Of a DNA stretch of 64,000 bases, positions 24,090 through 64,000 are shown piece by piece. Source of the stretch: Escherichia coli (GTDB lineage: Bacteria > Pseudomonadota > Gammaproteobacteria > Enterobacterales > Enterobacteriaceae); NCBI RefSeq assembly GCF_036507355.1, contig NZ_AP027877.1, one strand, 5' to 3'. The notes under the pieces were generated by a model. The model worked only from the letters and a program-made list of their open reading frames with translations. It did not search any database and had not been told where the DNA came from. A program made the translations under genes and the position numbers. How positions within the stretch are numbered: position 1 is the first letter of the stretch; each line of letters begins with the position of its first letter.

Positions 24090-24316
24090 TACCCATAGTG
24101 AGTACAGTGATTTCATAAAAATTATGAGATTTTTCACGGTGCTGTAGAATCCCTACCCTTACCGATGTAAAGCGACTAACCACACGGCAAATAAGGAGTA
24201 ACTCTTTCCGGGTATGGGTATACTTCAGCCAATAGCCGAGAATACAGCCATTCCAGAATGTATCGTCACATTCATTAAGGTTATTGCTCATTTAAAGCCT
24301 GAAGGAAGAGGTTTAC

Positions 24317-44820: not shown

Positions 44821-45912
44821 ATGGGATTCAAATGCGGTATCGTCGGTTTGCCCAACGTCGGGAAATCTACCCTGTTCAACGCGCTGACCAAAGCCGGTAT
44901 TGAAGCGGCCAACTTTCCATTCTGCACCATTGAGCCGAACACAGGCGTCGTACCAATGCCTGACCCTCGCCTGGATCAACTGGCTGAAATCGTAAAACCG
45001 CAACGTACGCTTCCCACGACCATGGAATTTGTCGATATCGCCGGTCTGGTAAAAGGCGCATCGAAAGGCGAAGGTCTGGGTAACCAGTTCCTGACCAACA
45101 TCCGTGAAACCGAAGCGATCGGTCACGTTGTTCGCTGCTTTGAAAATGACAACATCATTCACGTTTCCGGCAAAGTTAACCCGGCTGACGATATTGAAGT
45201 TATCAACACCGAACTGGCGCTGGCAGACCTCGACACCTGCGAACGTGCGATTCATCGCGTACAGAAGAAAGCCAAAGGTGGCGATAAAGACGCGAAAGCT
45301 GAGCTGGCGGTCCTGGAAAAATGCCTGCCCCAGCTGGAAAACGCAGGTATGCTGCGCGCGCTGGATTTAAGCGCTGAAGAGAAAGCGGCTATTCGTTACC
45401 TGAGCTTCCTGACGCTGAAACCAACAATGTACATCGCCAACGTCAACGAAGACGGTTTTGAAAACAACCCATATCTTGACCAGGTGCGTGAAATCGCGGC
45501 GAAAGAAGGTTCTGTTGTGGTTCCGGTTTGTGCTGCTGTTGAAGCAGACATTGCCGAACTGGACGACGAAGAACGTGACGAGTTTATGCAGGAGCTTGGG
45601 CTGGAAGAGCCGGGCCTGAACCGTGTGATCCGTGCCGGTTATAAGCTGCTGAACCTGCAAACTTACTTCACCGCTGGGGTGAAAGAAGTGCGTGCATGGA
45701 CCATTCCGGTTGGAGCAACCGCGCCGCAGGCAGCGGGCAAAATCCATACTGATTTTGAAAAAGGCTTTATCCGTGCACAAACCATCTCGTTTGAAGATTT
45801 CATCACTTACAAAGGTGAACAAGGCGCGAAAGAAGCAGGCAAAATGCGTGCAGAAGGTAAAGATTACATCGTGAAAGATGGCGATGTGATGAACTTCCTT
45901 TTCAACGTCTAA
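44821..45912 (+). CDS. ychF: Ribosome-binding ATPase YchF (Obg-family GTPase fold)
   Basis: 363-aa [43 protein letters not shown]... Confidence 0.97.
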
Positions 45913-45971
45913 ATAAAATTTGATGTCTCATGAGGTTTCACTGAATCTCAGAACAACGGTAAAACTCTATA

Positions 45972-45998
45972 AAATCCACGCAATTGCGTGGATTTTTC
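45972..45998 (+). terminator. Rho-independent terminator of ychF; core-genome/island junction lies just beyond
   Basis: Hairpin atccacgcaattgcgtggat followed by TTTTT. Confidence 0.7.
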
Positions 45999-46042
45999 AT
46001 TTCATGATGTCTCAAATCATCCCGTAAGAGCGCTGTCAAAAA

Positions 46043-46094
46043 TGAGTACATGAATGAGTACAACATTCTTCCATCTTCATTTTAAGTGAGTACA
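46043..46094 (+). promoter_or_regulatory. Three direct copies of TGAGTACA (46043, 46055, 46087) upstream of int; candidate integrase arm-type or regulatory sites
   Basis: Exact 8-mer repeated three times within 52 bp, 35-85 bp upstream of the int start codon. Confidence 0.35.
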
Positions 46095-46126
46095 ATAACG
46101 GTATAATAAATAAACAAGGCCCCGTT

Positions 46127-47320
46127 ATGCTCACTGATACACAATGCCGCACTGCCAAACCGAAAGAAAAACTCTATCGACTCAATGATTTCAACGGTCT
46201 CTACCTCGAAGTGAAACCCAATGGTAAAAAGGCTTGGCGTTATCGGTTTAAGCTCAACGGTAAATCCAGCATGTTTGCGCTAGGTGAGTACCCGACGGTC
46301 AAGCTTGCCGAGGCTCGAGAAAAATGCGAGCAAGCGCGAAAGCAGGTTGCGGAAGGAGTCAACCCAGCGCAAGCTCGTCAGTTAGATAAGATTCGTAAGG
46401 TTAACGACGCATCCAACACCTTTGAGCTGATCGCCAAAGAGTGGCTGCAGATGAAAGACTGGGCCGAAATTACCAAAACACGCCGACTGGATATGCTTGA
46501 ACGTGTGGTTTTCCCCTCAATCGGTAAGCTTCCAGTCAGAGAGATCACCCCACACCATATCCTTAAAATTCTTCAGGAAACTGCCAAACGAGGAGCACCG
46601 ACAGTTGCCGCAGAAGCCCGTCGCACCATTTCATCAGTTTTCGAGTTGGCTGTGGCAACGCTTAGAGCTGATAGCGATCCTGTCTGGCCTGTACGCAAGG
46701 CACTTCCGGCGAATAAGACACAGCACAAACAGGCATTGAATCCACAGCAAATCGGGAAGCTATTAAGCTGTTTTGATAACAGTCGCGGCTCATATCAGGT
46801 TAACTATTGCATGTGGCTAATGTGGTGGACGCTGGCGCGACCAGCCGAAGTCACCGAGGCAGAGTGGGCAGAGTTCGATCTTGGTAACGCACTGTGGACC
46901 ATTCCGGCAAGGCGTATGAAAGCTCGTAGGGAACATGTTATTCCCCTTCCTTCCCAAGCCGTCAACATGCTCAAAACACTACAAGGATTAACCGGGCATA
47001 GGCAGCATCTTTTTCCGGGCAGGGATAATCCGCTAGGCCCAATGACATCGCACTCTCTGCGTCAACTACTTAAAAGCCTCGGATGGAATGGCACTTATAG
47101 CCCCCATGCTACCAGAACTACAGGAAGTACGCGTTTAAACGAAATGGGCTATCGACCTGATGCTATTGAGGCCCAACTTGCGCACGCTGATACCAACAAT
47201 GTTCGTCGCACATACAACCATGCAACTTATCTTGATGAGCGAAAGGTTATGATGCAAGACTGGGCAGATAAACTTGAAGGATGGGTAGGAAGCACACACA
47301 GCAATATTGATGTTTCGTAA
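46127..47320 (+). CDS. int: P4-type tyrosine integrase (island integrase)
   Basis: 397-aa ORF with the N-terminal arm-binding-like region typical of P4-family integrases and a C-terminal catalytic region ...HSLRQLLKSLGWNGTYSPHATRTTGSTRLNEMGYRPDAIEAQLAHADTNNVRRTYNHATY (R..H..R..Y). Confidence 0.85.
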   Translation: MLTDTQCRTAKPKEKLYRLNDFNGLYLEVKPNGKKAWRYRFKLNGKSSMFALGEYPTVKLAEAREKCEQARKQVAEGVNPAQARQLDKIRKVNDASNTFELIAKEWLQMKDWAEITKTRRLDMLERVVFPSIGKLPVREITPHHILKILQETAKRGAPTVAAEARRTISSVFELAVATLRADSDPVWPVRKALPANKTQHKQALNPQQIGKLLSCFDNSRGSYQVNYCMWLMWWTLARPAEVTEAEWAEFDLGNALWTIPARRMKARREHVIPLPSQAVNMLKTLQGLTGHRQHLFPGRDNPLGPMTSHSLRQLLKSLGWNGTYSPHATRTTGSTRLNEMGYRPDAIEAQLAHADTNNVRRTYNHATYLDERKVMMQDWADKLEGWVGSTHSNIDVS

Positions 47321-51148: not shown

Positions 51149-51504
51149 TGGAGCACCTCAAAAACACCATCATACACTAAATCAGTAAGTTGGCAGCATC
51201 ACCTAAGTCTTGAGCCATTATTTCTATAAAATACATGTTAAATCATATTAGAATAGTTTATACGATAATTCGCTTGAAGAAGAAAAACACTATTCTAATT
51301 CAAACATTTTATATTATCAAGAACCATGGTAATTACAGTTAATTTACAGTATCAGTGATGTGGTTTCCAAAAAAGTATGCCCAAACATTTAAATATATGC
51401 CTTCGATAAATGAACTTTAACTCATCAGAATGACTACCCATCAATACTATTGAGTATATGAAGACAATTCACAGTCCCATCTGGCGAATTTTTCAGATGG
51501 CGAG

Positions 51505-54500
51505 TTAAATATCTTCTGGTGATTCCCCCAGATACATCTTACGGTAATGATACACTTCAAAGAATTTCCCCTTGTCTTTGTAACTACTGATAAAGTAGCA
51601 ATGTGTTAAATACTTTAGCAGGATCTCATTACCTTCAGTTTTGTGAACTTTTGCTCGTTTGGTTTTATCCGCAATCAAATTATATTCTTCCGACACGAAG
51701 GCCATAAGCGCACGATTGATGTATTCAAAAGGCAGTTCTTCACACTCTAAAAGATGATTCAAAAACACAAGTCGAGTGTCATCTTCCGAAACATTAAGAA
51801 GGAGTGCTATACTGACTTTACTATTTAGGCTTATATGGTCGAAGAAACTATTGGTATAGTGCGGCCAGAGAACATTGATGATTGAAACTTTAGTCGTCAA
51901 CTCTATATCGTCATCATTGAGCACAAGCTCAATAAGTTCATTATCGAAATCTTCGTCATCTTGCAGATAAAACTCAATATTATTTTCAAAAACAGCAAGG
52001 TTGTTTCTAATCATAAGCGACAGACACTCATTGAGGCCCTTGCGACGTTGTCCCTCATAAATGCTGAGTACGTCTTCATAGAGCGCTTCTGACAGCAAAA
52101 CTCTGTTGCTCTCACAAAGTGCTTTAAATTTTGTCAGTGGCAGGTCACTGATTACCTTGTCGATACTTACAGGCAGCACGCTGATCAACTGTGCATATAA
52201 CGCGTCTGGCTTATCCGCTGCTGAAATGATGTGATTCACAACATTATCAATAGACTCCTCAGGAACACTGACCTTATGGCCTGAAAGCACCTCTGGATGG
52301 TGAGCAAAAAACGCCCACAATATCTCATCGTCGACATCGGTATACATGTAGTTAAATATGTTATCCCAGTTGGCAGCGACACGCCCATGTTTAAACAAGA
52401 GGTCATAAACAGTGAATGACGCACCCTCAACTACCGATAGCCTGATATTTTCAACTGTCGACAACTGCTGAACTTCAAAATCCATGTTTTCAATTATAAT
52501 TTCTTTGGAACGCTCAGTAGCGTCTGAATTAATTAGTGAAATAACGGATCCAACGCTTTCCTCAGAATGAATGAAATATTCCACAATAAACATCTCAAGG
52601 TTTGTATTTACAGCCTCAATTAAGCATGGGACTTTTTCACTCATAATTAAGGTATATGGATTGCGCGATAGTTCCTCAACATTCTTTCTGTTATTAGAGT
52701 ACGCATTAAACAGTGCAGTGAGGTTATTAATATTAAATACATACAGAAAATTCTCTGCGATAAACTTCACCAACGTACGTTCACTTTCATCGTTAGCTTC
52801 ATTGACGCTATCGAATACAATATTGAGCTCTTTTAATTTTATGCTGAATGACGCAATCTCATCGGGTCGTATGTATGTAAACAACGTAGTGTCTGTTTTT
52901 AATTCATGCAGATAATCCTGAACAGCACTTTGTCGGGTAATGTTTTCTATCAGACCAAAACGAAGTAATGACACAAATAACTGCTGATAAAAATCATCAT
53001 CAGAGTCAATGTCACGGTAAGTACTCATCGCCGCCATCAATTTACCCAATGTCTTTTCATCGCTTAAAATTAAATTAATTAAGTCATGATAGTCATCATT
53101 ACTAAATTCATAAAAATACGTCCGCATAGTGCGAATGATTAAGCCATGTGAGCAATAATTAAATAAATGAATAAAAACATCACGGGCAAAACCAGCTCGG
53201 CAGTTGATCAAAAAGCTAATTATATGCGGATGAAAAATCCCCTCGTAATATTTAAATGATAGCGACTCCATTTTATCTACAACATTGGAAACGTTATTCA
53301 GATGAATATCTTTTAACTCCTCAAAATTCACCTTAGCAGCGACCTTCTGGATATAAACATTATCTGATTTACTTAATGCACCTGCATGGAAGATAGAGCG
53401 ATATTGCATGTAATCCTGCTCAATATATCCATTTGACAACATGAAAAACAACAATTCCATATTGAAATTAATCGCTGAAGGCTTGGATGCATTTTTATTT
53501 CCCTTATCGTCAGTTGATGCAACATTAAGCAACCACTCACTCAATTTCGCTAAGGTTATTTTTTCACATAATTCATGAAGTGATAGGCCATTTCGTTGAT
53601 TAAGAACACGCTGTGTGTTTAAAATATTTTTAGATAATTGCTCAACGGTTTTTTGGTTCTTATCTAAAATAACTGGTGAGCGTTTGTTATATTCACGTAA
53701 ACTCTCAGCTCGCTTATTATGTGGAATTTGGAAGGTATCTTGATATTCATACCCGTTTCTTGAATATGTGATAGCTATTCCGGATGGAAGCTCTCTGTTC
53801 AGAAAATCACAAAACAATGATTCATCCCCACAAAGTTCAACAAAGCTCCAGCTACTCCCAACTTGCCCATACTTATTATGGCTTATATAAAACACTGTAT
53901 TCGATTCAATTTGTTCAGGAAGATAACGCCTTAGAATTTCAACCCTCAGATTTAAACTGGATGTTTGCAATTCCTTTTGTACTTTCACCAACTTTTCTTT
54001 CTGCTGAGAAATCTTTATTTCCAAATCTTTAAAATACACGTCATGTAGCGTTCTCTTAGAGTAAGCATTAACTATTCTGTATAAAAAACCATCCTGATTA
54101 TCAAGCAGAGTGAAATCTTTGGTACATAAATTTTTATACATTATCAAAGAAAATAACTTCACATCAGAAATCTCACCCGTAATTAATTTTTTAAAAATAT
54201 TAAATTCATTTATAACATTATTCATCACCCGCATATCAGTCAGGTAAAGGGATACTTTCTTGAAAAACTGCTCTTTATCTACCGAATTAAAGTTTATAAC
54301 TTTACTACTTAATATGTCATACGCATTCTCACTATCTACTGCAGGTATAATCGGCACAATAAAATCAAAAAATTTTGTTTGTGATTCAGCATCCTTTAAT
54401 AAATCCTCCCTGACTGCAAAAATAAATTTAATCGGTTTCTTTTCCAATAGTCTGGAATTGTTTATCACTTGATTTATTTCACGGAGCTTAATAAAAATAT

Positions 54501-55407
54501 GACCATTGTTTAAACGGTCTAAATCTTCAAATACGACAACTCTATACTTTGTTTTAAGGAAGAAGTAAACAATCTCATCAATATACAAATTTAGCAGAGA
54601 AGCTGTATTCTGTTTTTCCGCCGCAATTTCTGCCTTTAAGAGATTTACTTTATCAAGAGCAATTTTTCTGTCAAAAAATCCTATCCGATAAAAACGAGAC
54701 AGCAGATACCAACAAATGATAAATGATAGCGAACCGATACATCCCCAACGCCATACCGGATGTATCGCAATGAAATGACTCACCGCTGACGGTAATGAAA
54801 ACGTGTTGATAATTTTTTGAGGAAACAACAATGTAGTGACAACGATTGTCAGTATGAGAACAAAAAACAGCAAACAGGATGTTATTAGTATTTGCCCAAC
54901 ACTTCGGGTGTGAATGCGCTCTACCCGCGAATCTGGCAGCGTACCTTTATCCACTTTGTATAAAATCTGCTGTAATATGCTGTATTCAATGCTTTGTTCT
55001 TTTGATAAAGACTCGGAACTTTTTAGTGTCTCATCCGTTTCAAAGTTTGCCAGTGAGATAATCACGTGCTCATCCGCTGGTTTTAAACTTGTAAACCTGA
55101 GCCAATATTTCAGGCGGTGCCACAACCGCTTTCGCCCTTCAATTTTTTTAAGGTATGAGAGAATAACCGAGCTTTTACCCGCGCCATAGGACCCCGTGAT
55201 GGCGATGTTCTTCACATCATCCCGGCTGAGGGCATAATCCAACGCCTTAAAATAGGGTTGATATCCCTCTTTATCAGGATCGACAATCGGTGTTAGCGTT
55301 TGGAATTCCCTTTCCGTTCCTGAATTGTTTTCTGAAGTAACCTGAAGCCTTGCGACTGTTTTATGCAACCAGTCTGCGATCGTTTTCAACCCGAAAGACA
55401 GCGCCAT
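51505..55407 (-). CDS. Large (1300 aa) KAP/YobI-like P-loop NTPase with transmembrane hairpin inserted between Walker A and Walker B; long C-terminal region of unknown function. Candidate defence/conflict protein
   Basis: Walker A ITGSYGAGKSSV (about aa 70-81), two hydrophobic helices (about aa 171-195 ILITSCLLFFVLILTIVVTTLLF and 215-236 HPVWRWGCIGSLSFIICWYLL), Walker B-like VVVFEDLDR (about aa 290-298); Lys/Asn/Ile/Phe-rich composition; gene is conspicuously AT-rich versus flanks. Confidence 0.75.
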   Translation of the reverse strand: MALSFGLKTIADWLHKTVARLQVTSENNSGTEREFQTLTPIVDPDKEGYQPYFKALDYALSRDDVKNIAITGSYGAGKSSVILSYLKKIEGRKRLWHRLKYWLRFTSLKPADEHVIISLANFETDETLKSSESLSKEQSIEYSILQQILYKVDKGTLPDSRVERIHTRSVGQILITSCLLFFVLILTIVVTTLLFPQKIINTFSLPSAVSHFIAIHPVWRWGCIGSLSFIICWYLLSRFYRIGFFDRKIALDKVNLLKAEIAAEKQNTASLLNLYIDEIVYFFLKTKYRVVVFEDLDRLNNGHIFIKLREINQVINNSRLLEKKPIKFIFAVREDLLKDAESQTKFFDFIVPIIPAVDSENAYDILSSKVINFNSVDKEQFFKKVSLYLTDMRVMNNVINEFNIFKKLITGEISDVKLFSLIMYKNLCTKDFTLLDNQDGFLYRIVNAYSKRTLHDVYFKDLEIKISQQKEKLVKVQKELQTSSLNLRVEILRRYLPEQIESNTVFYISHNKYGQVGSSWSFVELCGDESLFCDFLNRELPSGIAITYSRNGYEYQDTFQIPHNKRAESLREYNKRSPVILDKNQKTVEQLSKNILNTQRVLNQRNGLSLHELCEKITLAKLSEWLLNVASTDDKGNKNASKPSAINFNMELLFFMLSNGYIEQDYMQYRSIFHAGALSKSDNVYIQKVAAKVNFEELKDIHLNNVSNVVDKMESLSFKYYEGIFHPHIISFLINCRAGFARDVFIHLFNYCSHGLIIRTMRTYFYEFSNDDYHDLINLILSDEKTLGKLMAAMSTYRDIDSDDDFYQQLFVSLLRFGLIENITRQSAVQDYLHELKTDTTLFTYIRPDEIASFSIKLKELNIVFDSVNEANDESERTLVKFIAENFLYVFNINNLTALFNAYSNNRKNVEELSRNPYTLIMSEKVPCLIEAVNTNLEMFIVEYFIHSEESVGSVISLINSDATERSKEIIIENMDFEVQQLSTVENIRLSVVEGASFTVYDLLFKHGRVAANWDNIFNYMYTDVDDEILWAFFAHHPEVLSGHKVSVPEESIDNVVNHIISAADKPDALYAQLISVLPVSIDKVISDLPLTKFKALCESNRVLLSEALYEDVLSIYEGQRRKGLNECLSLMIRNNLAVFENNIEFYLQDDEDFDNELIELVLNDDDIELTTKVSIINVLWPHYTNSFFDHISLNSKVSIALLLNVSEDDTRLVFLNHLLECEELPFEYINRALMAFVSEEYNLIADKTKRAKVHKTEGNEILLKYLTHCYFISSYKDKGKFFEVYHYRKMYLGESPEDI

Positions 55408-56639: not shown

Positions 56640-56834
56640 TCAGCAACCTCCTCTGGTCCCACGGGAAGCAATCCACTCATTGACTTCACTTTCCAGCCAG
56701 GCCACCGCTCGTCCTCCTGTCAGGGATTTTTGGCGTGGGAAAGTCCCTTTTTCAATCATCCGGTACAGTGTGGCGCGGCTCACCGCACAGCGTTCCAGCA
56801 CAGCCTGAATTTTGACCAGTTTCATATCATTCAT
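56640..56834 (-). CDS. alpA: AlpA-family phage/island transcriptional regulator (MerR-like HTH)
   Basis: 64-aa ORF MNDMKLVKIQAVLERCAVSRATLYRMIEKGTFPRQKSLTGGRAVAWLESEVNEWIASR, the AlpA signature. Confidence 0.8.
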   Translation of the reverse strand: MNDMKLVKIQAVLERCAVSRATLYRMIEKGTFPRQKSLTGGRAVAWLESEVNEWIASRGTRGGC

Positions 56835-63647: not shown

Positions 63648-64000
63648 ATGTCGACCACCATTACTGAAGTAACGGAATGCTTTGAGTACCTTTTTAGTTC
63701 CCTTTACCGGAAAGCATTTGTCAAAACCCTGCGCCTTAACGAATGCAGTGAACGGGAGTTGCTACCGCTGGTACGCTGCTACCTGCTGGGTTGGTTTGCC
63801 GACAGCGTCTCACCGGAAGTCCGGGGGAAACTGCCCGGCAGTATCTCCGGGCATGGCTATATTGATTTCGTCATTGACGATGTGGCAGTGGAGTTCGCCG
63901 TCCGTAAGCCAGGAGCCGCCCGTTCTGCACTGTCAGCCTCAGTCAACAGCACGGAGGTAAAGAAACTGATGAAGTATGACGGCAAAGCCCTGCTGGTACT
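63648..64000 (+). CDS. Hypothetical protein, 5' portion (ORF runs off window end)
   Basis: ATG at 63648 opens MSTTITEVTECFEYLFSSLYRKAFVKTLRLNECSERELLPLVRCYLLGWFADSVSPEV... with no stop before position 64000. Confidence 0.4.
   Translation, partial: MSTTITEVTECFEYLFSSLYRKAFVKTLRLNECSERELLPLVRCYLLGWFADSVSPEVRGKLPGSISGHGYIDFVIDDVAVEFAVRKPGAARSALSASVNSTEVKKLMKYDGKALLV

Follow-up and report, generated by a model that had tools for sequence, protein, structure and literature searches.

Predicted arm-type integrase sites in a family of genomic islands inserted at the 3' end of ychF in Escherichia coli

In the Escherichia coli DNA analyzed here, three copies of the 8-mer TGAGTACA lie between the housekeeping gene ychF and an integrase gene, and a first-pass annotation regarded this cluster as typical of arm-type integrase binding sites or autoregulatory operators. 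The question raised by this locus is which protein would bind the repeats, and whether they belong to the attachment site of an integrated element, to the promoter of the integrase gene, or to both.

The triple repeat and the island junction

The window, which means the whole 64-kb stretch of DNA that was analyzed, is E. coli chromosome and is nearly identical to strain ET729 save for a 4.2-kb insertion at 51204–55396. On its plus strand, the host target gene ychF was located at 44821–45912 from the ORF list and the RefSeq annotation of ET729, and int follows at 46127–47320. The three exact copies of TGAGTACA within 52 bp that had been reported from the first reading were found again, starting at 46043, 46055, and 46087. 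Each copy is on the plus strand: repeat 1 occupies 46043–46050, repeat 2 46055–46062, and repeat 3 46087–46094, with start-to-start spacings of 12 bp and 32 bp, and the extended forms including the flanks are AATGAGTACA, AATGAGTACA, and AGTGAGTACA, respectively. They are described below as predicted P'1-, P'2-, and P'3-like arm-type sites, the third being also a candidate operator. The 8-mer has two other copies in the 64-kb window, at 24099 (+) and 25126 (−). The TGAGTACA triple is the single event across the 64 kb in which any non-overlapping 8-mer occurs three times within 52 bp; 300 shuffles that preserved the dinucleotide composition gave no such event, and ~0.006 events are expected analytically.

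The position of the repeats relative to the island was determined from the junctions with the host. The block TTCAACGTCTAA at 45901–45912 (+), which is the only block common to attL and attR and for which the shared sequence is also given as TTYAACGTCTAA, forms the final 12 nt of ychF with the stop codon included, and the ychF reading frame remains intact after the insertion. In the attR of several hosts, a host-specific flank begins right after the TAA, and in attL, island-type sequence begins at the same place. In E. coli S6, whose native flank is of the A21 type, the island-type sequence including the hairpin described below begins immediately after the ychF stop codon, and at the opposite island end, the A21-type flank resumes directly past another TTCAACGTCTAA. 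Metagenome attR sequences from other hosts show the same junction pattern at TTCAACGTCTAA. The sequence comparison thus places the predicted crossover in, or just left of, the 12-nt core block. Since this crossover at TTCAACGTCTAA is indicated both by island-free E. coli and by attR sequences with unrelated flanks, the repeats, which are located 130–182 nt right of the core, fall within an attachment-site arm. A second att copy was searched for inside the 64-kb window and none was found; for the right island end, which lies beyond position 64000, the sequence of the near-identical strain ET729 was used.

A different junction had been considered. In BLAST comparisons, K-12-type genomes align to the window up to ~46004–46020, and the extent of this alignment would put the junction at ~46020. 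This candidate was rejected because, in hosts with unrelated flanks, the junction coincides with the ychF stop codon; the alignment extent is misleading because the K-12-type flanks are themselves similar to the island arm.

The island DNA from the core to int, i.e., the P' arm, covers 214 nt at 45913–46126 (+). It is conserved beside int in ~47 distinct sequences from many genera, and it is also present in E. coli hosts with an unrelated native ychF flank (S6 vs. A21). The arm includes a terminator-like hairpin at 45971–45996 (+), consisting of an 11-bp stem and a 4-nt loop followed by a T-run, with an RNA folding energy of −16 kcal/mol (z = −4.0). Its assignment is based on direct reading, the fold, and conservation: the stem has a conservation of 0.93 and the loop is more variable at 0.82, and the hairpin is kept in the island across genera. 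In the first-pass annotation, the repeats were described as lying between the ychF terminator and the start codon of int. The position holds, as the copies are found between this hairpin and the ATG at 46127, but the hairpin is island-borne and does not belong to the host. It appears to be a mimic of the ychF terminator sitting between ychF and int, and it would be expected to limit read-through from ychF into int. For annotators, this means that in island-bearing strains, the hairpin usually taken as the ychF terminator belongs to the island.

The native flank of K-12-type strains was compared with the arm over window positions 45913–46030 (locus L002, 3214–3330). This flank, its terminator hairpin included, is ~81% identical to the first ~92 nt of the P' arm; the similarity fades just ahead of the arm sites, and the A21/B2-type flank is unrelated. 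Either the island would have copied this sequence from a K-12-type host, or the K-12-type flank would be left over from a former ychF island; a speculative reading is that the K-12-type ychF terminator itself is derived from such an island. Two further blocks of the P' arm that contain GTCTCA are conserved across genera, namely TTGTCTCATGAG right after the core (45923–45935) and TGTCTCAA right after the hairpin (46008–46015), and these may be core-type sites or sites of an accessory protein.

Conservation of the repeats and the arm at the far end

A genome scan with the integrase yielded 68 loci from ~60 species, mostly Enterobacterales, nearly all of which adjoin the ychF stop codon; in most of them, the motif recurs at positions −84, −72, and −40 relative to the int start codon. 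Conservation was scored as majority-base conservation in an alignment of 47 distinct attL sequences. The score is 0.93 for repeat 1 and 0.57 for the 4-nt spacer that follows it, 0.91 for repeat 2 and 0.62 for the next 8 nt, and 0.96 for repeat 3. When a mask of 3 × 8 nt with the fixed spacing was applied, the true register ranked first among 79. The region of 46033–46126 is fairly well conserved throughout and includes CCATCTTCATTTTA, a conserved block in the interval from copy 2 to copy 3; conservation is therefore not exclusive to the repeats.

The motif itself differs between integrase clades. Betaproteobacterial relatives, whose Int is 70% identical and which are likewise inserted at ychF, carry a GTGTATA-like motif as GTGAATAC, GTGTATAT, and GTGTATAC with the 12- and 32-bp spacing unchanged; this motif has no further occurrence in 21 kb. 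In Providencia stuartii, where the identity of Int is 53%, the corresponding copies are TGAGTATG, TGGGTACA, and TGAGTATA, and the spacing of 12 and 32 bp is kept. The comparison with related elements that was proposed in the first-pass annotation thus finds the repeats conserved in the relatives, with a motif that shifts with the integrase clade. A fixed architecture combined with a clade-specific motif is the pattern of protein-binding sites that co-evolve with their binder. For the P arm of the betaproteobacterial relatives, a pattern scan of viral_contigs returned chance matches only, and the island end in Rivihabitans is more than 10 kb away.

The same motif is present at the opposite end of the island. 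At the right end of ET729, read in the direction of int, a 3' fragment of tRNA-Thr is followed by AAAATGAGTATAACTATGAGTACA, 58 nt of AT-rich DNA, TTCAACGTCTAA, and the host flank. The AAAATGAGTATAACTATGAGTACA element consists of two motif copies 12 bp apart, which in ET729 take the form of ATGAGTATA, 3 nt, and ATGAGTACA, ending 58 nt before the core. The general form in this arm is ATGAGTAYA, in two copies ~58–78 nt left of the core at attR, and the pair was found at the attR of ET729, ZYB39, S6, IMT16316, and Ecol_745. All five arm copies, three in P' and two in P, have the same orientation. BLAST detected a homologue of the P arm in 628 E. coli genomes, the same count as that of the int carriers; most of these homologues are only 72–75% identical, with both motif copies retained.

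A pattern scan of metagenomes gave 29 further P arms, in which the conservation of the motif is by construction because the pattern demanded it; the layout of these arms comprises a 58–59-nt spacer, a conserved ATCAAT block, and a tRNA-like remnant. Evidence for the P arm that does not depend on the motif comes from three variants in E. coli and from one or two loci retrieved by protein, among them the Providencia locus L073, which was retrieved through its integrase protein and not through the motif and has the same P-arm pair. Junctions of P arm, core, and P' arm were found in the metagenome loci L081, L085, L102, and L103, and int or an int remnant follows in L081, L085, and L103. Contiguous junctions of this kind include L073, which is from Providencia vermicola, and the downstream int is degraded in some of these loci. 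Such junctions are the structures expected of tandem islands or excised circles.

Within the variable AT-rich spacer of the P arm, the ATCAAT block is located ~27 nt upstream of the core (e.g., at ~5924–5936 of L006, the ET729 locus). Six P arms were scored against the IHF consensus WATCAANNNNTTR, and in four of them the block differs from it at one position, a hint of an IHF site. The tRNA-Thr 3' fragment, 48 nt in length, directly abuts the P-arm sites in ET729, and most of the P-arm variants retain the tRNA-like fragment as a diverged remnant.

Candidate binders of the repeats

The product of int is a P4-family tyrosine integrase of 397 aa with the three Pfam domains Arm-DNA-bind_3 (PF13356), Phage_int_M (PF22022), and Phage_integrase (PF00589). 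The N-terminal arm-DNA-binding domain spans residues 2–85 (E = 1.2e-26). Int is 35% identical to the integrase of phage P4 over ~400 residues, i.e., the full length (E = 8e-77), and ~36–40% identical to IntS-type and other phage integrases, the IntS type being at ~36%.

The region upstream of int was also inspected for expression signals. A putative −10 hexamer, TATAAT, was read at 46102–46107 (+), where it has a conservation of 0.88 and is conserved as TATAA followed by T, G, or A; a consensus −35 is missing. This perfect TATAAT, the only consensus −10 before int, lies 7 nt past the end of copy 3, which occupies what would be the −35/−10 spacer of the putative promoter. A Shine-Dalgarno-like AAGG is located at 46116–46119 (+), 7 nt before the ATG, in a block (46116–46120) with a conservation of 0.90. 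A consensus scan for sigma-70 promoters and terminators over 45850–46250 called nothing, in the case of the promoter because the −35 is poor; the −10 was assigned from direct reading and its conservation. It is plausible that copy 3 is an operator for autorepression by Int, a role that is proposed tentatively because no promoter passed the consensus scan.

These data bear on the identity of the binder as follows. The integrase has a separate N-terminal arm domain, the motif is distinct from the core and is found in both arms, and it is conserved and covaries with the integrase. Int is therefore the best candidate for the binder, because of its arm domain, the presence of the motif in both arms, the divergence of the AlpA-family protein, and the separate repeats of the second integrase, the last two of which are discussed below. 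It is highly probable from the sequence comparison that the island's Int, a heterobivalent tyrosine integrase, recognizes the TGAGTACA copies as its arm-type binding sites in the int-proximal (P') arm. The suggestion of arm-type sites in the first-pass annotation is thus supported in silico by the Int arm domain, the occurrence in both arms, the conservation footprint, the covariation, and the P4-like layout.

What was observed directly is that the sites exist, where they lie, and that they are conserved and covary with the integrase, together with the domains that Int contains; from this, we infer the following binding, bridging, and repression. The island would insert at the final 12 nt of ychF with the core TTCAACGTCTAA. 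Its P arm would provide the two ATGAGTAYA copies 12 bp apart, followed by ~58 nt of AT-rich DNA with the ATCAAT block and then the core, and its P' arm would provide ~130 nt with the copy of the ychF-type terminator, copies 1 and 2 at 12 bp, copy 3 at a further 32 bp, and int. The N-terminal domain of Int would bind the arm sites while the C-terminal domains bind the core, and the intasome built by this bridging of arms and core would carry out integration (attP × attB) and, when joined by the AlpA-family factor, excision (attL × attR). While the island is integrated, Int bound at copy 3 would repress its own promoter because copy 3 is immediately upstream of the only consensus −10. Because the island of this strain is riddled with IS elements, it may have ceased to use these sites.

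An unlikely alternative is that the repeats bind the AlpA-family protein, as an excisionase/RDF or an activator of int, rather than Int. The island encodes a small HTH protein of this family (64 aa, 56640–56834 on the minus strand; Pfam PF05930, E = 3e-16), which is a candidate for the excisionase/RDF of the island. AlpA activates intA of CP4-57, and the int promoter described above, with a perfect −10 and without a −35, resembles many activator-dependent promoters. TorI, the RDF of KplE1, binds attL and the int promoter (PMC2951348). However, the sites of characterized RDFs cluster in one arm, whereas the TGAGTACA motif is found in both, and the layout matches that of the arm repeats of P4 Int. 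In addition, the islands of the window and S6 have identical repeats and identical Int residues 1–75, but their AlpA proteins are only 52% identical.

A second integrase was also considered. The right end of ET729 (L006, 4452–5900) encodes an intact P4-family integrase, intB, on the minus strand, which is accompanied by P4-type repeats, i.e., TGGGGGCAT twice and an inverted copy on the intB ATG. The AGCCCGTAT repeats near intB were examined as possible arm sites of intB and set aside, as the P4-type GGGGGCAT repeats fit better. Because neither AGCCCGTAT nor GGGGGCAT resembles TGAGTACA, intB is an unlikely binder of the latter. A broader proposal, to which we assign a very low probability, is that the island family has a compound attachment region serving two integrases, with ychF or thrW chosen as the landing site. 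In the circular form, the P-arm sites of the integrase studied here (IntA) would come to lie against the tRNA-Thr fragment, the GGGGGCAT repeats, and the divergent intB, and the two int genes would flank a single att region of ~600 bp. This arrangement of IntA, tRNA, and intB is intact in ET729 and is found as remnants in all P-arm variants.

The repeats might instead be purely transcriptional, for example operators for a host or island regulator or elements of the UP or −35 type, and play no role in recombination. Copies 1–3 are located at about −71 to −20 from the expected start site, and conservation extends down to the ATG, as this reading would predict. Nevertheless, we regard it as hardly probable, since it explains neither the P-arm pair, which is 58 nt from the core at the opposite end of the island and far from int, nor the match to the attP layout of P4, and the motif changes with the integrase clade. 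Chance or a functionless remnant of duplication, in favor of which there is nothing beyond the short length of the motif, is extremely improbable and is effectively refuted by the comparative data, as the shuffles produced no such triple and the positions of the copies are kept across dozens of genera while the spacers diverge.

Known systems and distribution of the ychF islands

The assignment of the repeats to Int as arm-type sites was compared with characterized systems. In the P4 record NC_001609, a 12-bp "attP arm sequence repeat" is annotated in three places (the Pierson & Kahn repeats): there are two tandem pairs, one separated from the core by ~55 nt of AT-rich DNA on the upstream side and the other ~112 nt beyond it on the downstream side, and a single additional copy on the int start codon. 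The ychF island resembles P4 in its integrase, which is homologous at 35% identity with the same three Pfam domains, in the tandem pair with a 12-bp period in each arm, in the distance of the P-arm pair from the core (~55–58 nt of AT-rich DNA), in the location of the P' pair more than 100 nt from the core, and in one more copy beside the int start. It differs in the motif (GGGGGCAT in P4 and TGAGTACA in the ychF island), in the int-proximal copy, which is inverted in P4 and direct in the island, and in the target, which is tRNA-Leu for P4 and the 3' end of a protein gene for the island. The comparison with the attP of P4 therefore gives the same annotated arm-repeat layout except for the orientation of the int-proximal copy. 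The designation "P4-like" holds for the integrase module but not for the whole element, which is not a P4-type satellite: its target is ychF, and the RefSeq annotations of the ET729 and S6 islands list none of the P4 satellite genes (alpha primase, sid, psu, delta, and cos). P4 Int is described as repressing its own promoter by binding there (Piazzolla et al. 2006, as cited in PMC2951348).

A parallel for the arrangement of int is the HK620-type prophage KplE1, in which the P' sites of IntS overlap the intS promoter in attL and IntS represses this promoter (Panis et al. 2010, PMC2951348). Several further int genes of E. coli have likewise been shown to be autorepressed, and the predicted autoregulated int loci have intergenic regions of 208–228 bp (PMC2951348). 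The gene int studied here is, as in KplE1, co-oriented with its target gene and directly downstream of it; the IntS-type integrases are ~36% identical to Int, the intergenic region of 214 bp falls within 208–228 bp, and a predicted arm site lies on or beside the putative −10. KplE1 differs in that its target is tRNA-Arg (argW) and its arm motif contains TAAA; furthermore, in KplE1 the sites of the RDF (TorI) have been mapped and repression has been measured. Lambda Int has three direct P' copies and two copies in the other arm, which are bound by an N-terminal domain separate from the domains that bind the core (PMC2951348). The ychF island likewise has three direct int-proximal copies and two in the other arm, with an arm domain of PF13356 instead of the PF09003 of lambda and with a different motif, spacing, and target.

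Insertion at the 3' end of a housekeeping protein gene, with the frame intact and int beside the junction, is also the case for SGI1 at trmE and for the MGIs at yicC. These elements differ from the ychF island in integrase lineage and target gene. In ICEKp1, as reported in PMC13023037, int is directly downstream of the host target and stem-loops upstream of it limit read-through from the host promoter. The conserved island-borne terminator hairpin between ychF and int is similar in placement, with the difference that ICEKp1 displaces the tRNA terminator, whereas the ychF island supplies a replacement.

The arrangement follows the P4/KplE1/lambda paradigm and is conceptually nothing new. The literature that was searched yielded no description of an enterobacterial ychF island or attB, or of this island family. 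The gene int is present in 628 of 5426 complete E. coli genomes, ST131 strains included, and with the ychF-3'/attL/int-start junction as the query, at least 80% was held by 629 genomes. One of the 629 places matching int in E. coli lies on a plasmid and not on a chromosome. The ychF island was also found in many other Enterobacterales and in some Betaproteobacteria. The att map of this ychF-targeting island, whose cargo is often anti-phage defense, comprises the core, the two arms, and five candidate sites for Int, and it makes the excision, transfer, and stability of ychF islands directly testable, and the system could supply a new site-specific integration system at a conserved, non-tRNA site.

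Downstream of int, the island carries IS elements, the AlpA-family gene, a second small recombinase, RadC, and toxin-antitoxin genes, and the RefSeq annotation of the ET729 and S6 islands lists IS elements, toxin-antitoxin genes, RadC, a second recombinase, and defense genes. Because the islands at ychF carry anti-phage cargo, ychF looks like a hotspot for defense islands. The island of E. coli S6 (L011, S6/ST131-type) encodes a reverse transcriptase of the retron Ec67 family and an ABC-three-component system, and that of Rivihabitans (L230) contains a QatB-containing cluster with KAP NTPase, QueC-like, and TatD genes together with a type I restriction enzyme. The insertion at 51204–55396 that distinguishes the window from ET729 encodes a YobI-like P-loop NTPase of 1300 aa (PF20693, with a weak KAP match); its GC content is 33–39%, and it adjoins an IS1.
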